Below, piece by piece: positions 43,631 to 52,438 of a DNA stretch of 64,000 bases. Below the pieces are notes generated by a model, which saw only the letters and a program-made list of their open reading frames with translations, did no database searches and was not told the origin of the DNA. Each line of letters opens with the position of its first letter. Position 1 is the first letter of the stretch. The DNA is from Bryobacteraceae bacterium (GTDB taxonomy: Bacteria; Acidobacteriota; Terriglobia; Bryobacterales; Bryobacteraceae), in contig DATJRE010000239.1 in assembly GCA_035505095.1 (NCBI GenBank), positions 14,448-78,447 on the forward strand, in the 5' to 3' direction. Made by a program: the position numbers and the translations under genes.

Positions 43631-44949
43631 AGCCCACCGCCAGTCCCGGTCGGCCGCGGGTTTCTTCGAGAGGTTCGCTGTCGCACGCCTGGCGCGCGCT
43701 GCGGCACCGCAACTTCCAGCTCTTCTTCTTCGGCCAGACCATCTCGATGGTCGGCACCTGGATGACGCGGCTGGCCACTGGCTGGCTGGTCTACCGGATG
43801 ACCGATTCGGCGCTGCTGCTGGGGGTGGTCAGCTTCGCGGGTCAGATTGTGGCGTTTCTGCTGGGGCCGTTTGCGGGCGTCTGGGTGGAGCGCCTCAATC
43901 GCCGCCGGCTGCTGTTGTGGACGCAGGCGGCCGCCGCGGTTCAGTCACTCGCCTTGGCGGCCCTCACCCTGGCGCATGTCATCACCCTCCGGGAAATCAT
44001 CGTCCTCACTGCTCTCCAGGGCTTGATCAACGCGTTCGACATGCCGGGGCGCCAATCCTTCCTGGTGCAGATGGTCGAGGACCGTAATGACCTTAGCAAC
44101 GCCATCGCCATCAACTCCTCGATGGCCAATGGTGCGCGGCTGGTCGGCCCGGCCCTCGCCGGCCTGGTGATCGGGGCCGCCGGCGAAGGCTGGTGCTTCC
44201 TGATCGACGGCGTCAGCTACTTCGCGGTGATCGCCTCCCTGCTGCTGATGCGCATCCCACCGCTGCACATCCGCCGGGCCGCGGCCAGCATGTTCGAACA
44301 AATGCGCGAGGGCTGGGACTACGTGCGCACCTTTCGCCCCATCCGCACCATTCTGCTGCTATTTGCCCTGATCAGCCTGATGGGCTGGCCGTACTCCGTG
44401 CTGCTGCCGGTGTTCGCCGGCCAGGTGCTGCACGGTGGTCCGCATACCCTCGGCTGGCTCACGGGAGCTTCCGGGACCGGCGCGCTGATTTCGGCGCTGT
44501 CGCTGGCGGTGCGTAAGACGGTGGTCGGGCTGACGCGCATGGTGCAGATCGCCGCCGCCACCCTCGGATGCGCCCTGATTCTCTTCGGCCTGTCGCACAC
44601 GTTATGGCTCTCCCTGGTGCTGATGGTCTTCGCCGGCTTCGGCTTAATGCAGGGCGCATCGGTCAGCAACACCATCGTCCAGTCGCTGGTGACGGAAGAC
44701 AAGCGCGCCCGCGTGATGAGCTATTACACCATGGCATTTTTCGGCGCGGCGCCGTTCGGCAGCCTGCTGGCCGGCGCGCTGGCTCAGCGGATCGGGGCGC
44801 CCCACACGGTCATGGTCACTGGCGCTTTCTGCGTCGCCGGCGCGCTCTGGTTCACGCTCGATCTGCCAAAAGTCAACGCCCTCATGCGGCCGGTCTACTA
44901 CGAGCTCGGGCTGCTGCCCGCTCGCGAAACCTCATCGTCAGTCCCGTAA
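43627..44949 (+). CDS. MFS transporter (EntS/MFS_3-like)
   Basis: GTG start at 43627. FRALRHRNFQLFFFGQTISMVGTWMTRLA is typical of the MFS_3 N-terminus. About 12 TM segments. Confidence 0.8.
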   Translation: MKPTASPGRPRVSSRGSLSHAWRALRHRNFQLFFFGQTISMVGTWMTRLATGWLVYRMTDSALLLGVVSFAGQIVAFLLGPFAGVWVERLNRRRLLLWTQAAAAVQSLALAALTLAHVITLREIIVLTALQGLINAFDMPGRQSFLVQMVEDRNDLSNAIAINSSMANGARLVGPALAGLVIGAAGEGWCFLIDGVSYFAVIASLLLMRIPPLHIRRAAASMFEQMREGWDYVRTFRPIRTILLLFALISLMGWPYSVLLPVFAGQVLHGGPHTLGWLTGASGTGALISALSLAVRKTVVGLTRMVQIAAATLGCALILFGLSHTLWLSLVLMVFAGFGLMQGASVSNTIVQSLVTEDKRARVMSYYTMAFFGAAPFGSLLAGALAQRIGAPHTVMVTGAFCVAGALWFTLDLPKVNALMRPVYYELGLLPARETSSSVP

Positions 44950-44963
44950 ACCGAAAGGAAACC

Positions 44964-45530
44964 ATGCCTCTCACCCAACTCGATACTACCCCCGCCCTGG
45001 TCGTGATCGACCTGCAAAAGGGCATTGTCGGCTTTCCCACCGTGCACCCCATCGCCGAGATCATCGCCCGAACCGCCCATCTCGCCCGTGCGTTCCGCGA
45101 GCGCGGTCTGCCGGTGGTTCTGGTCAATGTCTCCGGCATGGCTCCCGGCCGCACCGATGCCGGAAGGCCCAAGTTTTCGTTTCCGCCCGATTGGACCGAG
45201 CTGGTCCCGGAACTGGAGCAGCAACCCGGCGACCACCTGGTCACCAAGCAGCGCTGGGGCGCCTTCCTGGGCACCACTTTGGACGACGATTTGCGCCGCC
45301 GCGGTGTCACCCAGATTGTCCTCACGGGCGTGGCGACCAGTGCCGGCGTCGAATCGACCGCCCGTAGCGCTTACGACCTGGGCTACCACGTGGCATTGGT
45401 GGTGGACGCGATGACCGACCGCGATGTCGATTCGCACCGTCACACCGTGGAGAAGATTTTTCCCCGTCTGGGTGAGACCGCCACTACCGAAGACGTCCTG
45501 AAACTCCTGCAGGAGCGCCCGGCCCGGTAA
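44964..45530 (+). CDS. isochorismatase-family hydrolase
   Basis: RBS AAAGGAA. ALVVIDLQKG...HLVTKQRWGAFLGTTLDDDLRRRGVTQIVLTGVATSAGVESTARSAYDLGY, with the catalytic Cys replaced by Ser/Ala context. Confidence 0.8.
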   Translation: MPLTQLDTTPALVVIDLQKGIVGFPTVHPIAEIIARTAHLARAFRERGLPVVLVNVSGMAPGRTDAGRPKFSFPPDWTELVPELEQQPGDHLVTKQRWGAFLGTTLDDDLRRRGVTQIVLTGVATSAGVESTARSAYDLGYHVALVVDAMTDRDVDSHRHTVEKIFPRLGETATTEDVLKLLQERPAR

Positions 45531-45553
45531 GCGCAATCTGCCTATAATCCGAT

Positions 45554-46183
45554 ATGCGGTCTGTCCCTCGCGCCAGGCGCCGGCTGGGCTTTTTCGGCGG
45601 CTTGGCCGTGCTGTTCCTGTGCGCGGTGGGTCTCTTCGCCATTCTGCAGCCATGGTCCTTCCACATCGGCGGCCGATGGACGCCCACCACCACCTGGTAT
45701 GGAGTGGGCCGGCTGCGCGACTCCACCGGCGCTCAGTATGGCTTGTACCTCTCCTTCTTTCCCGATAACACCTCGGACGGTGAAGGCGGGCTGCGCAGCG
45801 GACCCATGTTGCGCCACGACCTGCGTGGGAAGGCTACGGTTTGCACTGCCGGCGGCGCGCAGTACCGTTTCGACGTCCAGGGCGAGATTACAGGGGCCTG
45901 GCTGCGCACCGATGGCGCAGCAATGTTCCTCTCGCTGGGCGAGCCCCGCGGCCCCAAAATCCCGCGCTCTTTCAGCCTGTACGGTGCCTGGCATGGCCCG
46001 GAGCTGCCGCTCGACGATCACAAGACCATGTTCATGAACTTCCTTCCCGACGGCACTCTCACCCCATCCGGCCACTACACTGCCCCGGTCCCGGAAAAGC
46101 ACGCTACCGTCACGCTCTCCTGGGGTTCCGAAAGCGACTTCGAGACGTTATGCGCGGACCTGCGCAGTGTCCCCGGCCGATGA
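45554..46183 (+). CDS. hypothetical membrane-anchored protein
   Basis: 209-aa ORF with an N-terminal TM (LGFFGGLAVLFLCAVGLFAIL) followed by a beta-rich soluble region. No family recognised. Confidence 0.5.
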   Translation: MRSVPRARRRLGFFGGLAVLFLCAVGLFAILQPWSFHIGGRWTPTTTWYGVGRLRDSTGAQYGLYLSFFPDNTSDGEGGLRSGPMLRHDLRGKATVCTAGGAQYRFDVQGEITGAWLRTDGAAMFLSLGEPRGPKIPRSFSLYGAWHGPELPLDDHKTMFMNFLPDGTLTPSGHYTAPVPEKHATVTLSWGSESDFETLCADLRSVPGR

Positions 46184-46391
46184 GCGCCGCTTACAGGTTT
46201 GGCCCCTTCTTGGAATTGCATCTCCAGCCTGCAAGCGCCGCATCGTCGAGGCTGTGGCCCCGGCCGTGCCGGCGGGCGACGATATGCCCGAGATGGAACG
46301 CCCGCTCCCGGTGATTGCCGCGTTGCTAAGATTAGATTTCACGCCGAAGCCGTCCAGTTCCGGCGCGTGCAAACGCTCGAGGTCCAGCACG

Positions 46392-46661
46392 ATGTGCCGA
46401 AGCATCAAGCCGCTTTTTAATTTCGATCCGCCCGTCAGTCCGGAGGAAATCCGCGCGGCGTCGCTCCAGTTCGTCAGAAAGATCAGCGGCTTCCACAAGC
46501 CGTCCAAGGCCAACGAAGTCTCGTTCGCTGCCGCGGTGGACGAAATTGCCGCTGTGTCCAACCGCCTCCTTCGCTCGCTCGAAACCGCCGCGCCGCCCAA
46601 GAATCGCGAAGAAGAGGCCGCCAAGGCCAAGAGTCGCGCTGCCGATCGATATCGCGCTTGA
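46392..46661 (+). CDS. DUF2277 domain-containing protein
   Basis: 89 aa from MCRSIKPLFNFDPPVSPEEIRAASLQFVRKISGF. This matches my memory of the DUF2277 N-terminus. The upstream part of ORF 46167.. looks non-coding. Confidence 0.6.
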   Translation: MCRSIKPLFNFDPPVSPEEIRAASLQFVRKISGFHKPSKANEVSFAAAVDEIAAVSNRLLRSLETAAPPKNREEEAAKAKSRAADRYRA

Positions 46662-46682
46662 GCCGCGCGCGGCGCCGCAGGA

Positions 46683-48008
46683 TCACCGCCCCCACGGAAT
46701 GGTTTCGAAAATGTTCCGCAGGCGCCGGGCCTTGGCGGGATTAATCATCTCCACGAAGCCGATCCGGCCCGTCAGGTGCGCTCGAAAATCCGCAAGTCCT
46801 TCGCGGTTCTGCGAGGCGGGGCCGCGCCGTGCGCAGTTGATCAGCACCGCTTCCAGCAGTTCGAGGTCGCCGCGGCGAAGGTTGAGCTTTCGGTTCACCA
46901 CCATCCCCGCGAGACTCTGCCGCACGCCTTGCCGCATCATGCGGGTCTTGTGGTGGTTGACGCTGAAACCCTCCTCCAGGGCAACCGCTGCCGCATGGGA
47001 GGCGAAGCGGCCGGCCACCCGGCGGAACTCTGCATCCCCCGAGAAAGCCAGATCGTCGGCGTAGCGCGTGTACACTGCGCCGGCCGACCGGGCCAGGCCG
47101 GAGAGGCGGCAATCCAGGCGGTACGCCGTGATGCTGGCGAGCGCCGGCGAGGTGGGCGCGCCTTGCGGCAGGTGCCGCCGCGCGTACACCGTGTGCGCCT
47201 CCCGCCATTCCGCGGCGCCGATTTCGAGCGGGCGATGGCCCCACGCGTCGCCCGGAACCGCGTTGGTGCAGAGGCCGCCCAGGCCGTCCGCAACCGCCTC
47301 CGGATAACCCAGCGTCCGGAAGAAGGCTTGCACCCGCGCGGCGGGAAATGCGGGGAAGAAGTCCTGCAAGTCGAGGCGCAACACAACCTGCCGGCCGGCA
47401 TGCGGCGCGGCAAAACTGGCCACCGATCGCCCTCTGACGAATCCGTGGGCCGCCGGGTGGGGCGGAATGCGGTCGAGAATCTCGCGTAAGATCCACCGCT
47501 GCAATTCCTTGATTTGCGGCTTGGGGATCTCGATCAGGCGCACGCCGCCCGAGCGCTTGGCGCGTATCCGGTAACGGTAGTGGCGGAGCTTCGGATTATC
47601 GAGCTTGCAGCCGAGACCTTTCAGATCGGCAAACCACTCCAGTTCATCCGGCTGCAGGGACAGCCATCGGGCCAGGTCGCCCACCGTTTCGATCGCGGGA
47701 AGATCCCAGTGCGCGGCGGCGGCCACCGGGCGCATGCGCTGCGGCTCGGGGAGCCAGACGGCCACCGAGAGCTTATCGCGATGGGCGGCGCGCTGAAAAC
47801 CCGCGTCCCCCAGCAGGAATCGGATCACGTCGCGGTGGCGCGGACGGGTGCGCCCGGCGAATGCCTCCACGTAGCGTTGGGCCAAGGGCCGCAGCCAGCG
47901 CCAGGGCCGGCCCAGCGTACGCATGGCCCGTACGTGGACACTCTCGACCGTCGGCTCCCCGGCCATCAGGCTTCGGGCCAGGGCGCTGATCACGGCCGCG
48001 GCGGGCAT
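46683..48008 (-). CDS. retron-type (retron-like) reverse transcriptase with ~130-aa N-terminal extension
   Basis: RT motifs in order: RLIEIPKPQIKELQRWIL, AHGFVRGRSV, LRLDLQDFFPAF, LPQGAPTSPALAS, YTRYADDLAFSG, FSVNHHKTRMM, LAGMVVNRKLNL. A retron-like tail HLTGRIGFVEMINPAKARRL follows. Confidence 0.85.
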   Translation of the reverse strand: MPAAAVISALARSLMAGEPTVESVHVRAMRTLGRPWRWLRPLAQRYVEAFAGRTRPRHRDVIRFLLGDAGFQRAAHRDKLSVAVWLPEPQRMRPVAAAAHWDLPAIETVGDLARWLSLQPDELEWFADLKGLGCKLDNPKLRHYRYRIRAKRSGGVRLIEIPKPQIKELQRWILREILDRIPPHPAAHGFVRGRSVASFAAPHAGRQVVLRLDLQDFFPAFPAARVQAFFRTLGYPEAVADGLGGLCTNAVPGDAWGHRPLEIGAAEWREAHTVYARRHLPQGAPTSPALASITAYRLDCRLSGLARSAGAVYTRYADDLAFSGDAEFRRVAGRFASHAAAVALEEGFSVNHHKTRMMRQGVRQSLAGMVVNRKLNLRRGDLELLEAVLINCARRGPASQNREGLADFRAHLTGRIGFVEMINPAKARRLRNIFETIPWGR

Positions 48009-48013
48009 ACCAG

Positions 48014-48190
48014 ATGGCGGCGGAAGACTTCAACCAGTCTGACTTGGCGTGAGCGGAACTGCCTGCTCGCCATCGCAGAGAGGCTCACGCGACGAAATGG
48101 CGAGGGGACACTCTCCCCCGGGGTAGCCCCGGAGAGGCCAACCGAGCCCGCAAGCCCGATTGCACCGTGCTTGAAAACCTCCACCGCCAC
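48014..48190 (-). ncRNA. candidate RT-associated structured ncRNA (msr/msd-like), bounded by a 13-bp a1/a2-like pairing
   Basis: On the minus strand, GUGGCGGUGGAGG (48190-48178) can pair with CUUCCGCCGCCAU (48026-48014): 10 WC plus 3 GU pairs. Two perfect 8-bp stems and two short hairpins lie between, and a third 8-bp stem spans the a1 arm. TATCAT sits 5 nt upstream. Boundaries are hypothetical. Confidence 0.3.
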
Positions 48191-48233
48191 AGCACATGAT
48201 AGCAACCTGGCGAACCGGCGCGAGGGCTCGGAC

Positions 48234-49487
48234 TTACTGCTCGATCCCCAGCGATGCCGCCACGCGCACCAGCGTCGAAACCAGCCGCTGTACGTGTTTC
48301 TCGGTGTGGGCGGCGGTGCAGGAAATCCGCAGCAGGTTCTGCGCGGCGGCCGGCCGCAGCACCGGGTTGATGTAGATGCCTTCTTCCAGTAGCGCCTTGC
48401 ACAGCCGGCACAAATCAATCTCTTCCTCAATCACCACCGGCACGATGGCGGTTTCGCCGGGCAGCACCTGGAAGCCGCGGGCGCGCAGTTCCTCGCGCAG
48501 ATAGCGCGCCACCTTCAGCAGGCGCAGGCGGCGCTCCGGTTCGTCGCGCATAATTTCCAGCGCTGCGGCCACCGCCGCTACCGAGGCCGCCGGCAGGCTG
48601 GCGGAGAAGACAAACGGCCGGGCGGTGTGCTTCAGGTAATCCACCACCGCGCGGTCCGCGGCGATGAAACCGCCCACCGAAGCCAGCGACTTACTGAACG
48701 TGCCCATGACGATATCCACATCGTCCAGCACGCCCAGGTGCTCGGCGGCGCCGGCGCCGGTTGGTCCCAGGACGCCGATGCCGTGGGCTTCATCCACGTA
48801 CACCCGCGCGCCGTACGGCTTGGCCAGCTTGAGAATGCCGGGCAGGTCGGCGATGTCGCCTTCCATGCTGAAAACCCCTTCGGAGACGATCAGGATTTTG
48901 TCGTCGGGCGGCGTGTTCTCCAGGCAACGCTCAAAGTGCTCCAGGTCATTGTGGCGGAAACGCATGGTGCGGGCCGGCGAGCGCAGGGCGCCCTCCACCA
49001 GGCTGGCGTGCAGGTTGTGATCGCAGATCATCACGTCGCCCTTCTCGGTAAGCGCCGACAGGGTGGCGTAATTGGCTTGAAACCCGGTACCAAAAATAAT
49101 GGCGGCCTCTTTGTGTACGAAGGCCGCCAGTTCGCTTTCCAGCTTGACGTGAATATCGAGGGTGCCGTTCAATAGCCGGGAACCGCTGCACCCGCTGCCG
49201 TACCTCTTTACCGCGTGGGCGGCGGCTTCCTTCACCTTGGGATGCGTAATCAGGTCCAGGTAATCGTTGGACCCGAACATCAATACCTTGCGTTTCCCCA
49301 TGCGGACTTCGCCCGGCCCGCAGCCATCGCGATCGCCAAAGACTTCAAAGTACATATACAACCCGGCGGATTGCAGATCACTCGGACGAGTGAAGTTGCG
49401 GCATTTCTCGAAAATGTCGTTGGTTCCGCGGGCCTTTCCTTTGCCGGTGATGTCGCCAGTCGATACGCGCATGGTCCTCAGTTCCAT
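48234..49487 (-). CDS. alpha-oxoamine synthase family PLP enzyme, serine palmitoyltransferase-like
   Basis: FGSNDYLDL...YGSGCSGSRLLNGT...DEAHGIGVLG...VMGTFSKSLASVGGF (PLP lysine). The overall layout resembles bacterial Spt rather than short BioF. Start 49487 or 49472. Confidence 0.85.
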   Translation of the reverse strand: MELRTMRVSTGDITGKGKARGTNDIFEKCRNFTRPSDLQSAGLYMYFEVFGDRDGCGPGEVRMGKRKVLMFGSNDYLDLITHPKVKEAAAHAVKRYGSGCSGSRLLNGTLDIHVKLESELAAFVHKEAAIIFGTGFQANYATLSALTEKGDVMICDHNLHASLVEGALRSPARTMRFRHNDLEHFERCLENTPPDDKILIVSEGVFSMEGDIADLPGILKLAKPYGARVYVDEAHGIGVLGPTGAGAAEHLGVLDDVDIVMGTFSKSLASVGGFIAADRAVVDYLKHTARPFVFSASLPAASVAAVAAALEIMRDEPERRLRLLKVARYLREELRARGFQVLPGETAIVPVVIEEEIDLCRLCKALLEEGIYINPVLRPAAAQNLLRISCTAAHTEKHVQRLVSTLVRVAASLGIEQ

Positions 49488-50593
49488 TCGTAGATTCGGT
49501 AGGTCTTGTAGCGCTTGGCCCCCATCAGTTCCAGGGAGCGGTTCATCAGGGTATTGTCTTCCAGTATCCAGGACATCTCAGTTTCGCCGTAGCCCAACTG
49601 TCGCGCGTTGCGGACCAGGGTTGCGTAAAAAGCTGCCGCTACGCCGGAAGTGCGGTACTCCTCCACCACGCCCAATGCGAGAACTCGTACACTTCGGATC
49701 AAACGTTGATAATACAGGATTTTGAGCAAACCGGTGGGAAGTAATTTGCCGCCCGCGGGTTTCAGCGCCTGGTTGATGTCGGGCAGGGCCAGCGCGAAAC
49801 CCACTACTTTGCCCTTTACCTCGCCAATCAGTACCAGGCTGGGCTTTAGAATCTGCTTCATCTCCTTGCCCTGCAAGACGAACTCTTCGCGCGACATGGG
49901 GATGAAGCCCCAGTTGCTCACCCATGCCTTGTTGTATACCTCCCAGACTTTCTCTACCTCGGCGTCGAAATTCTTCATATCGATGGGGCGGACCACCACC
50001 CCGTTTTTGGCCAGCGCGCGGCTCGAAACGCGCTCGATTTTGTCGATGTCGATGGTGTTGGCGTTGCTCACGTACGCCAGCAGGTCTTTGGCTTTCTGCA
50101 GCCCCGCCTGCTCCATCAGGGCGGGGTAGTAGCGGTGATTGTAGGTCATCATCACCATGGGGCTGGAATCGAAGGCATCCACCAGCATGCCGCACTCGTA
50201 ATTGGTGGAAGGATTCACGGGGCCGCGCAGGAAACGCGCGCCGCGTCCCGTTACCCACTGCCGCGCGGCGCTAAGCAGCGCCTTGGCCACCGCCGCGTCG
50301 TTGATGCTTTCGTAAAAGCCGAAGAATCCCGCCACTTCTCCGTGGGTCCGGTTGTGGGCTTTGTCGAAAATCGCAGCAATGCGCCCCACCACCCGGCCGT
50401 TCTGCCGCGCCAGGAACAGCTCCGTTTCGGCGTCCTTGTAGTACGGGTGTTTGGCCTTGTCGAGCAACTCCTTCACAGCGATCCGCAACGGCGGCACCCA
50501 ATAGGGATCGCCGCGGTAAATTTCGTAGGGCAGTTCCACGAACTGATGAAGGGCCTTTTTGTCCTCAACCGCAGCGATCTCAATTCCCGCCAA
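49478..50593 (-). CDS. GNAT-fold N-acyltransferase-like protein (candidate bacterial ceramide synthase)
   Basis: 371 aa with a TTG start. Two acyl-CoA N-acyltransferase-like halves (ELFLARQNGRVVGRIAAIFD... and LIGEVKGKVVGFALALPD...LALGVVEEYRTSGVAAAFY). The function is inferred from context. Confidence 0.55.
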   Translation of the reverse strand: MAGIEIAAVEDKKALHQFVELPYEIYRGDPYWVPPLRIAVKELLDKAKHPYYKDAETELFLARQNGRVVGRIAAIFDKAHNRTHGEVAGFFGFYESINDAAVAKALLSAARQWVTGRGARFLRGPVNPSTNYECGMLVDAFDSSPMVMMTYNHRYYPALMEQAGLQKAKDLLAYVSNANTIDIDKIERVSSRALAKNGVVVRPIDMKNFDAEVEKVWEVYNKAWVSNWGFIPMSREEFVLQGKEMKQILKPSLVLIGEVKGKVVGFALALPDINQALKPAGGKLLPTGLLKILYYQRLIRSVRVLALGVVEEYRTSGVAAAFYATLVRNARQLGYGETEMSWILEDNTLMNRSLELMGAKRYKTYRIYEWN

Positions 50594-51458
50594 TCGTCAC
50601 ACTCCCATTGGAAAGTCTCCGGTACAAGACGGGGGCAAACCGGATCAGCAGAAACGCCAACACTGCTCCCGCCAGCAAGTCGACCGTATAGTGGTATCGA
50701 AGATAAACTGTAGCAAAAATGATGCAAAGAGTGTAGGCAAAATAAGCCCGGAATAGCCGATTTGAGACCATCCGGCTGCCCCACCACGCCAGGATGGTGA
50801 GCTCCGTGTGGCCGCTCGGGAAACAGTCGTAATGCGCGGATTCCAAACGGTCCAGCGTGCCCTGCATCCAGTGGAACAGCCAAAGTCCTTCTAACGGCGC
50901 ATGTTGCAAATGGCGCAGCAGAAAACGCGGGCCCCGCGCCGGCACCACGAGGTACCCGCCATAGGAGGTCAGAAAGCCCAGGGCGATTAGAAATGCAAGA
51001 TATTGGAACTCCCCGTAGCGGCCTCTTTTCCAGATCAGGAACGGAATCAGTAGTACCGCCGGTACAAATAAGGTGTAGACAACCTGCAAAAATTCAGTTA
51101 AGGCTGGAGTCTGCACCCGCTCCAGCCAGACAGTCGGATTGGCGTGCCAGAAACGGTAATCCAGGTTCGCCAGCCATTGGTCGAGATCGGTGCGCCGCAC
51201 CGCCGGTACCAGCAGAGCCATTTCCTTGTAACAGGAGGCTACGTAGGGCAGCGGATACCAGTTCCGGAAAACCCAACTGCTACGATTGGGGAATTTCACC
51301 TCACCCACGATCACCGCCAGGGCGGCGGCATGGGCGGCCAGCAGCCAGGGGCCCTCGGCCAGCCGGGACCACCCCAGCAGGATGAGCACCGTGGCGAAGG
51401 CGGTGTAGCCGAAGATCACCTTGTCCACCGCCCAGAAACTGGTCGGCGAGGGTTTCAA
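50580..51458 (-). CDS. PAP2-superfamily membrane protein (PAP2_3 / Aur1-like)
   Basis: Polytopic. C2 motif CFPSGHT and C3 motif RYHYTVDLLAG. I prefer TTG 51458 (TTGA overlap with the upstream stop) over ORF maximum 51587, which would overlap the SDR gene by 133 nt. Confidence 0.7.
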   Translation of the reverse strand: MKPSPTSFWAVDKVIFGYTAFATVLILLGWSRLAEGPWLLAAHAAALAVIVGEVKFPNRSSWVFRNWYPLPYVASCYKEMALLVPAVRRTDLDQWLANLDYRFWHANPTVWLERVQTPALTEFLQVVYTLFVPAVLLIPFLIWKRGRYGEFQYLAFLIALGFLTSYGGYLVVPARGPRFLLRHLQHAPLEGLWLFHWMQGTLDRLESAHYDCFPSGHTELTILAWWGSRMVSNRLFRAYFAYTLCIIFATVYLRYHYTVDLLAGAVLAFLLIRFAPVLYRRLSNGSVTIGGN

Positions 51459-52438
51459 TAGTGGATCCAACCGGCCTCCTTGTACCAGGCCAGGGTGCGG
51501 GCCAAGCCGTCTTCCAGCGGGGTGGCGGCTGCGAAGCCCAGTTCGCGGGCGGCGCGCCGGGGGTCGCAGGTCCAGGCGCGGCAGCACGCCTCGGTGACTT
51601 TATCGCGCGACAAAATGCCCGGCCGGCGTGTCACGCGGGACCACAGTTCGGCGCAGTATGCGGCCACCCGCGCCACGGCCGGCGGGATGCGCAGCACGCG
51701 CACGCGGCGGTTCATAAGCCGCGCGGCCACGGCGGCCAATTCGCTCCAGGACACCACTTTCGGATGGGCCAGAAAATAGGCCCGCCCGGCGGCTTGCGGG
51801 GCCTCTGCTGCGGCGATCAGGCCCTCTGCCAGGTCTTCCACGTAGATAGCGCTGAACCAGCGCTCGCCGCCCGCAATTTCCACCACCAGCCCACCCGAAA
51901 TCGACTTCAGGATCTGGAAAACGTCCGTATCGCGCGGCCCATACACCACCGGCGGCCGTACGATCACCGCATCTGGGCGCCAGCGCGCCGCCATCCGCTC
52001 GGCCTCCAGCTTGGATTTGCCGTATTCCGAAACCGGGTGCGGCGAGGCGTCTTCGGCAATCGGCGCACCGTCCGGGCTGGGACCCATGGCGGCCAGTGAG
52101 CTCACGTGCACAAACCGTATGGGCCGCCCCGCCAGCAAGCGGGCCAGCGTTTCGGTGGCGCGTGTATTGCCGTTGTAATAATCAGCGGCGGCAAGGGCTT
52201 TCGTCACGCCCGCCAGGTGGATCACGGTATCTACCCCATCGAGCGCCGCCTCGATTCCCTGGCCCGTGGTCCAATCCGCCTGCGCCGTCTCCACGCCCGC
52301 CGGAATCGCGTCCTTGCCGTGGGAGCGCGGCTTACCCCGCGCGCGGCGCACCAGGCAGCGTACCCGGATACCCCGCTCGCTCAGTTTCCGCAGCAGATGA
52401 CCGCCGATGAAACCGGTCCCGCCGGTAACCAGGAACAT
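51455..52438 (-). CDS. NAD-dependent epimerase/dehydratase-family (extended SDR) protein
   Basis: MFLVTGGTGFIGGHLLRKL (GxxGxxG) ... VHVSSLAAMG ... YGKSKLEAE (YxxxK). Confidence 0.85.
   Translation of the reverse strand: MFLVTGGTGFIGGHLLRKLSERGIRVRCLVRRARGKPRSHGKDAIPAGVETAQADWTTGQGIEAALDGVDTVIHLAGVTKALAAADYYNGNTRATETLARLLAGRPIRFVHVSSLAAMGPSPDGAPIAEDASPHPVSEYGKSKLEAERMAARWRPDAVIVRPPVVYGPRDTDVFQILKSISGGLVVEIAGGERWFSAIYVEDLAEGLIAAAEAPQAAGRAYFLAHPKVVSWSELAAVAARLMNRRVRVLRIPPAVARVAAYCAELWSRVTRRPGILSRDKVTEACCRAWTCDPRRAARELGFAAATPLEDGLARTLAWYKEAGWIHY

Follow-up and report, generated by a model that had tools for sequence, protein, structure and literature searches.

Retrons are regarded as toxin/antitoxin defence systems of three parts and have been put to use in genome editing. 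The best-characterised of them is Ec86 (Eco1, type II-A3), for which structures of the reverse transcriptase (RT) with msDNA have been solved. In Ec86 an RT of 320 amino acids without an N-terminal extension is accompanied by a nucleoside deoxyribosyltransferase-like effector, while the type XIII retrons (Mx162, Mx65, Sa163 and Ne144; RT clade 10) have long RTs with N-terminal extensions, are found in GC-rich soil hosts and are linked to SWIM zinc-finger/winged-helix and HEAT/ARM-repeat genes. The DRT2 (UG2) systems consist of one RT gene with a structured noncoding RNA (ncRNA) upstream and no separate effector gene, and their cDNA is concatemeric, being made by rolling-circle copying.

Retrons with no effector gene have also been described. 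Stand-alone (msr-msd)-RT cassettes occur in RT clade 11, a clade for which structured ncRNAs were found, while the stand-alone Ec107-like retrons form a branch of RT clade 2, which is present mostly in Gammaproteobacteria (Mestre et al. 2020, PMC7736814). In a 2026 SPIRE preprint clade11-A is given as the 'OutgroupA ncRNA sub-clade', and its tables place RTs from Bryobacterales MAGs in clade11-A together with RTs from Actinomycetota, Planctomycetota and others, all without an effector annotation. The literature searched contained no experimental test of any clade-11 member and no paper linking retrons or msDNA with Solibacter or Acidobacteria. A term search of the retron census of Khan et al. 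and its supplements gave no member of the RT family described below, the one Acidobacteria retron of that census being of type II-A1.

Here we describe a locus of this kind in a 64,000-nt stretch of DNA from a Bryobacteraceae bacterium, referred to below as the window. An original prediction had drawn attention to the 225-nt gap upstream of an RT gene (Table 1) as a region packed with inverted repeats. From the analysis of this gap and of its homologues we consider it probable, at about 0.85, that it encodes the msr-msd ncRNA of a stand-alone, clade-11-type retron that has no adjoining effector gene. The adjacent RT most likely copies this RNA into a small single-stranded DNA. Since the prediction of the class and its RNA dates from 2020 and the listing of Bryobacterales members from 2026, the discovery is modest, the locus adding one member. 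It does provide a precisely annotated test case in which the promoter, the a2/a1 helix, the branch G, msr, msd and RT can each be assigned a predicted position, and a covariance model that recovers the RNA in three phyla. The short predicted msDNA and the compact cassette could also interest retron engineers.

Table 1. Positions of the retron features and adjoining genes, numbered from the first nucleotide of the window.
Feature	Position	Strand	Remarks
Serine-palmitoyltransferase-like gene	48234-49487	minus	NCBIfam 4.8e-138, under the model's cut-off
Gap upstream of RT	48009-48233		225 nt, between the serine-palmitoyltransferase-like gene stop and the RT start codon (48008)
Extended -10 promoter, TGC TATCAT (predicted from conservation)	48196-48204	minus	5 nt upstream of a2
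a2, closing helix 5' arm, GUGGCGGUGGAGG-U-UUUCAA	48171-48190	minus	Pairs with 48033-48014 in the MFE fold
Predicted branching (priming) G	48170	minus	Conserved CAA-G-C context, directly 3' of a2; G in 79/79 loci
msr stem-loop 1	48136-48166	minus	Variable in sequence and length, a single hairpin in 77/79 loci
msr stem-loop 2, CUCCGGGG-CUA-CCCCGGGG	48116-48134	minus	8 consensus pairs, 99.7% paired, 5 compensatory
Lineage-specific alternative helix, CUCGCCAU/AUGGCGAG	48104-48097/48073-48066	minus	Rivals the inner msd hairpin or pseudoknots onto its loop
Predicted msd, cDNA template	48034-48100	minus	Upper limit approximate; read from G48034 toward 48100
msd outer stem, GCGUGAGC/GCUCACGC	48090-48083/48054-48047	minus	93% paired, 7/8 pairs compensatory
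msd inner stem, CUGC/GCAG	48078-48075/48062-48059	minus	4/4 pairs compensatory
a1, closing helix 3' arm, UUGAAG-U-CUUCCGCCGCCAU	48014-48033	minus	Inner distance to the RT start codon 5 nt
Retron-type reverse transcriptase	46683-48008	minus	441 aa, YADD intact, Pfam RVT_1 6.8e-19
RT N-terminal extension, residues about 1-135	47604-48008	minus	All-helical, clade-specific, pLDDT 84
DUF2277 gene	46392-46661	plus	5.9e-34; convergent with the RT gene 3' end

By sequence and by predicted fold the RT is a retron-clade enzyme, and the PADLOC profiles, a PDB sequence search and the predicted fold agree on this point. The top PADLOC profiles are RT_other (5.5e-145), RT_outgroup (1.3e-137) and RT_XIII (2.8e-95), and the match to RT_outgroup, a profile labelled retron, spans positions 7-407 of 407 with the N-terminal extension included. 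Against PDB sequences phmmer gave 14 matches, all 14 of them retron RTs, with Ec86 as the best (8.7e-33). The AF2 model has a pLDDT of 91.4, and its top 18 Foldseek matches are all retron RTs, followed by DRT2 and group II intron RTs; Ec86 is again the closest solved structure (E 1.2e-21, TM 0.77 on target). The NCBIfam retron models St85 and Ec67 also match the RT, but under their curated cut-offs. Retron RTs carry two motifs, NAxxH in region X between RT2 and RT3 and VTG in region Y within RT7, in which the H and the G are the most conserved residues (PMC7736814). Region X of the RT described here is FAAPH, with A200 and H203 invariant, and region Y is the LAG of RQSLAGMVVN, with G368 invariant and VCG as the corresponding motif in Actinomycetota relatives; NAxxH has thus lost its N here and VTG its V and T. 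The catalytic YADD is conserved as well. Two Actinomycetota-type homologues of the RT (P0122 and P0124) have the JGI name 'GNAT superfamily N-acetyltransferase' while their only Pfam match is RVT_1, and this naming is likely to be a mis-annotation.

From the name of the PADLOC profile and the preprint table we infer that RT_other/RT_outgroup corresponds to clade 11. The clade-11 stand-alone retrons (ncRNA 'Outgroup A/B'; SPIRE clade11-A/B) would then be the closest relatives of this locus: the RT matches both RT_outgroup and RT_other over the full length, the hosts of that clade include Actinomycetota, Acidobacteriota (Bryobacterales) and Planctomycetota, as here, and no difference was seen among the features compared. 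Type XIII provides the next-best typed profile, and its members resemble the present locus in having long RTs with N-terminal extensions and GC-rich soil hosts, the short msDNA predicted here being Mx65-like in size. However, the RT_XIII profile aligns from residue 98 only, which points to a different N-terminal domain in this RT, and none of the genes linked to type XIII is conserved here. Ec86 has an RNA of like plan, with an a2/a1 helix, a branching G that directly follows a2, hairpins in msr and one hairpin in msd, but no effector was found here to correspond to that of Ec86, the RT identity is about 25% and the RNAs have no sequence similarity. The Ec107-like retrons belong to another RT clade, and their PADLOC profile (RT_Ec107-like) reaches only 2.2e-49.

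All of the inverted repeats that the original prediction listed are present in the gap where it had placed them. They include three perfect 8-bp repeats (48047-48054/48083-48090, 48066-48073/48097-48104 and 48142-48149/48224-48231), a hairpin CCGGGG-tag-CCCCGG, and a 13-bp helix with three G·U pairs (48190-48178/48026-48014) that begins 5 nt after a TATCAT hexamer (48201-48196) and ends 5 nt before the ATG. In dinucleotide shuffles of the 225 nt, a control that had been proposed for these repeats, the mean number of perfect helices of at least 8 bp is 0.37 per shuffle and three or more occur with P = 0.006, so that their number is unusual, not extreme. Three 8-bp repeats are reached by 2.9% of the 225-nt segments of the same 64 kb, which has 65% GC, and the folding z-score of the single sequence is -1.58, modestly better than shuffles. 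Taken by itself the sequence is therefore suggestive, not decisive, and the case is decided by comparison.

Homologous loci were obtained from a genome scan, which gave 8 loci, one of them from Planctomycetaceae, one on a contig labelled Bordetella and the rest from Bryobacterales and other Acidobacteriota, and from a metagenome scan, which gave 80 further loci with RT identities of 42-71%. Those with sufficient upstream DNA make up a set of 79 loci from Acidobacteriota, Actinomycetota and Planctomycetota, with RT identities of 42-95%. RT homologues as such number in the thousands in soil Acidobacteriota and Actinomycetota, and the most distant locus that bears the RNA (L085) has its relatives in Solirubrobacterales and Thermoleophilia (Actinomycetota). 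The contig labelled Bordetella (L006, CAZDGT010000022.1) is binned as 'uncultured Bordetella sp.' and encodes an RT 68% identical to the acidobacterial RT of the window; it is probably a binning error and not a Bordetella retron.

About 185 nt upstream of the RT can be aligned in all loci despite differing upstream genes. RNAalifold, applied to a structure-blind MAFFT alignment of 27 sequences, predicted 38 base pairs, 27 of which show compensatory changes. In this MAFFT-only alignment 95.2% of cells are paired, a value that none of 500 shuffles matched, while slid controls gave 38-47%. A covariance model built from the same alignment, R1, has exactly one full-length match in each of the 79 loci, directly upstream of the RT and on the RT strand, and the single match in the window lies at 48006-48193 on the minus strand (146.9 bits, E 4e-32). 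The 79-sequence alignment, which is fitted to the covariance model and leans toward its structure, has 96.4% of its cells paired and compensatory changes in 33 of the 38 pairs; slid controls gave 34-48% and none of 500 shuffles matched, a count that is not a probability, the sequences being related. The original prediction had named covariation at homologous RT loci as a check on the helices, and most of the consensus pairs show it. It had also proposed a scan with Rfam retron models, and here a permissive scan of positions 44000-52000 (E up to 10) returned neither a retron nor any other family, a result that is weakly informative because no Rfam model of the clade's RNA is in evidence. At gathering score no Rfam family was found in positions 1-64000 of the window, and hence no tRNA, rRNA or known riboswitch.

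The geometry of the long helix had been likened to that of a retron msr-msd transcript, in which a2 and a1 close the RNA just before the RT gene, and the comparison bears this out. The a2/a1 helix has 17 consensus pairs (48187-48171 with 48033-48017), which are 96% paired and of which 16 are compensatory among the 79 loci, and it is also recovered in the structure-blind MAFFT alignment. In the window itself the closing helix given by RNAfold consists of the 13 bp and a further 6 bp (48176-48171/48033-48028) that flank a U·U mismatch, and a repeat search extends the 13-bp helix to arms of 22 nt. At the inner end of the helix the invariant G48170 faces G48034, which lies directly 5' of a1 and is conserved in 78 of 79 loci. 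This arrangement matches the retron consensus, in which one G faces another at the inner end of a1/a2 (Mestre et al. 2020, PMC7736814), and by analogy G48170 would be the priming nucleotide.

The TATCAT hexamer, originally noted as -10-like, proves to be part of a conserved extended -10, TGnTATnAT. In most of the 79 loci this motif precedes the RNA by a constant distance, independent of the upstream gene, and in more distant loci its place is taken by TTGACA and a -10-like hexamer. A simple two-hexamer promoter scan did not list the -10 at 48196-48204, and it was missed because there is no -35. One relative (L003:3870-3890) has a GCT duplication right before the -10, a small lineage-specific duplication.

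Between the two arms of the closing helix the RNA is laid out as two msr hairpins followed by the msd stem-loop, as expected of a retron (one to three msr hairpins and a longer msd). In 77 of the 79 loci the stretch from the branch G to stem-loop 2 folds as one hairpin, L071 and L087 folding otherwise. This msr stem-loop 1 has a length of 16-52 nt and a median z of -2.8, with z < -2 in 77% of loci, and in the window it consists of 10 bp (48162-48153/48148-48139) and a 3-bp closing stem. The CCGGGG-tag-CCCCGG hairpin is the conserved msr stem-loop 2. Many of the RNA's near-invariant bases lie in it, and one of its pairs occurs as C-G in 42 sequences and as U-A in 34. The msd stem-loop is two-tiered, with 8 and 4-5 bp, and short for a retron. 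In the window and in the 95%-identical locus L005 the msd loop contains an additional GCAG (GAGCAGGCAG, 48059-48066, minus strand), a small lineage-specific duplication that gives two possible registers of the inner stem. Two unpaired stretches are conserved in sequence beyond structural need, one just 5' of the msd stem (AUUUCGUC, 48091-48097, minus strand) and one just 5' of a1 (GUCAGACUSG, 48035-48041, minus strand); they are candidates for the stop and start signals of reverse transcription respectively.

The kind of mismatch tolerated by the helices differs between the parts of the RNA. Among the non-Watson-Crick cells of the helices predicted to be RNA only (a2/a1 and msr stem-loop 2) there are 197 G·U and 15 A·C, whereas the msd helices have 7 G·U and 21 A·C (Fisher p = 5e-15 against the RNA-only helices, where cells are sequences and not independent events). 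An A·C in the RNA corresponds to a T·G wobble in its complement, so that selection appears to act on the complementary strand in the msd stem and on the sense RNA elsewhere. Such a pattern fits what would be expected if msd is copied into a folded DNA and is not predicted by a pure RNA leader. The asymmetry may be taken as an in-silico sign that the DNA is really made.

Some of the repeats in the gap are not features of the family. Two of the 8-bp stems interleave and had been read as a pseudoknot or a pair of alternative folds; of these GCGUGAGC/GCUCACGC stands as the conserved outer stem of msd, while CUCGCCAU/AUGGCGAG is lineage-specific and there is no conserved pseudoknot. The latter helix has 7-8 bp only in the window and its close relatives L005, L001 and L009, and 6 bp in the distant L007; it is disrupted by C·A in the next-closest relatives L002, L003 and L060 and missing in the rest. 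In the family alignment 49% of its cells are paired against 44% in shuffles, a level that 5 of 500 shuffles get to, and there is no excess of both-sides-changed pairs over shuffles. With few lineages and no excess covariation it was rejected as a family pseudoknot. The repeat at 48142-48149/48224-48231 is present but does not stand as an RNA helix: the CCGAGCCC arm (48231-48224) precedes the promoter and is not within the conserved RNA, and its partner GGGCUCGG is the 3' arm of msr hairpin 1. The pairing CCGAGCCC/GGGCUCGG was rejected, the 5' arm being unconserved beyond the 95%-identical locus L005. Likewise the GGGGA/UCCCC hairpin is present in the window, but it is absent in relatives and therefore not conserved.

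These results bear on the other ways in which the gap might be explained. Inverted repeats could arise by chance in a GC-rich spacer, or belong to a terminator of the upstream gene, and the GC content of 65%, the 2.9% of segments with as many repeats, the z-score of only -1.58 and the one repeat of the three that is apparently due to chance, with its 5' arm outside the conserved RNA, are what such an origin would leave behind. A covarying RNA conserved in 79 loci, in three phyla and in unrelated genomic contexts refutes this explanation, to which we attach next to no weight. The RNA might instead be a cis-regulatory 5' leader of the RT mRNA that, for example, occludes the start region and is never reverse transcribed. 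The position of a1, 5 nt from the start codon, would allow the closing helix to mask translation initiation, but a leader leaves unexplained both the invariant opposing Gs and the tolerance of A·C and avoidance of G·U in msd, which is the opposite of the other helices; members of this RT family moreover use such RNAs as primer and template, and we regard a leader function alone as very improbable.

The original prediction had also allowed for the ncRNA template of a DRT-type RT. The RNA would then serve as template or scaffold for a defence RT from outside the retrons, similar to DRT2 or DRT9, giving a long or concatemeric cDNA and no 2'-5' branched msDNA. This is quite improbable, although the single-gene DRT systems likewise combine one RT gene with a structured ncRNA upstream and lack an effector gene, a weak match to the Drt2 profile (3.5e-7) does occur and a DRT2 structure appears at rank 19 of the fold search. 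The Drt2 match (NF041746) scores 29.8 bits against a cut-off of 390, which places the RT in another lineage; DRT2 is outranked by 18 retron RTs in the fold search, with DRT9 also below them, and all PDB sequence matches are retron RTs. The layout of the RNA, with its a2/a1 helix, invariant Gs facing each other, two hairpins in msr and one in msd, is specific to retrons, and no template flanked by repeats, as in DRT2, was seen.

If the gap is a retron RNA, transcription would be driven by the extended -10, with a predicted start near 48190, and would probably continue into the RT gene. In the transcript a2 would pair with a1 and so place G48170 opposite G48034, and the RT would bind the msr part, in which hairpin 1 is variable and hairpin 2 (CUCUCCGGGG-CUA-CCCCGGGG) highly conserved. 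The RT would then prime from the 2'-OH of G48170 and copy the msd template from 48034 to about 48100. The expected product is a branched msDNA of roughly 60-70 nt, the DNA of which would fold as a GCGTGAGC/GCTCACGC hairpin.

A partner for this predicted msDNA was sought in the neighbourhood of the RT. Clustering of all ORFs of at least 90 aa within about ±3 kb in the 79 loci gave a single recurrent cluster, consisting of the RT and its shadow frames, with the next cluster present in 5 loci. No conserved effector gene was thus found within about 3 kb of the RT, and the flanking genes vary from locus to locus around the pair of RNA and RT. In the window PADLOC has no match on the ORFs neighbouring the RT, and PADLOC, Pfam and NCBIfam found no effector among the ORFs downstream of it. 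Taken with the PDB fold search, ORF clustering, PADLOC and Pfam gave neither an effector gene nor an effector domain fused to the RT of the sort seen in the tripartite types I-XIII. No relatives of the RT were found among viral contigs.

The output of the retron may depend on a partner encoded elsewhere, on the RT's own N-terminal domain, or on a role other than defence. Residues 1-135 of the RT, predicted with confidence to form a helical domain, have no Pfam match and no PDB fold match, and the domain is kept in Actinomycetota relatives at a lower identity of 25-30%. This domain might be a stand-in for the absent effector, or might make extra contacts to the RNA. We think it unlikely, and put it forward tentatively, that the system is self-contained, with the N-terminal helical domain replacing effector or sensor, or that the msDNA has a housekeeping role and not one in defence. 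If true, a retron with an N-terminal effector or a housekeeping msDNA would represent biology unlike the toxin-antitoxin model.

With regard to its surroundings in the window, the DUF2277 gene is convergent with the RT gene, and the retron therefore stands alone between two convergent gene sets. Beyond the DUF2277 gene there are an isochorismatase-family gene and an MFS_3 transporter gene. Directly upstream of the retron the co-directional genes at 48234-52438 (minus strand), which encode the serine-palmitoyltransferase-like enzyme, a GNAT acyltransferase, a PAP2 phosphatase and an NAD-dependent epimerase/dehydratase, look like a sphingolipid-type lipid biosynthesis cluster.
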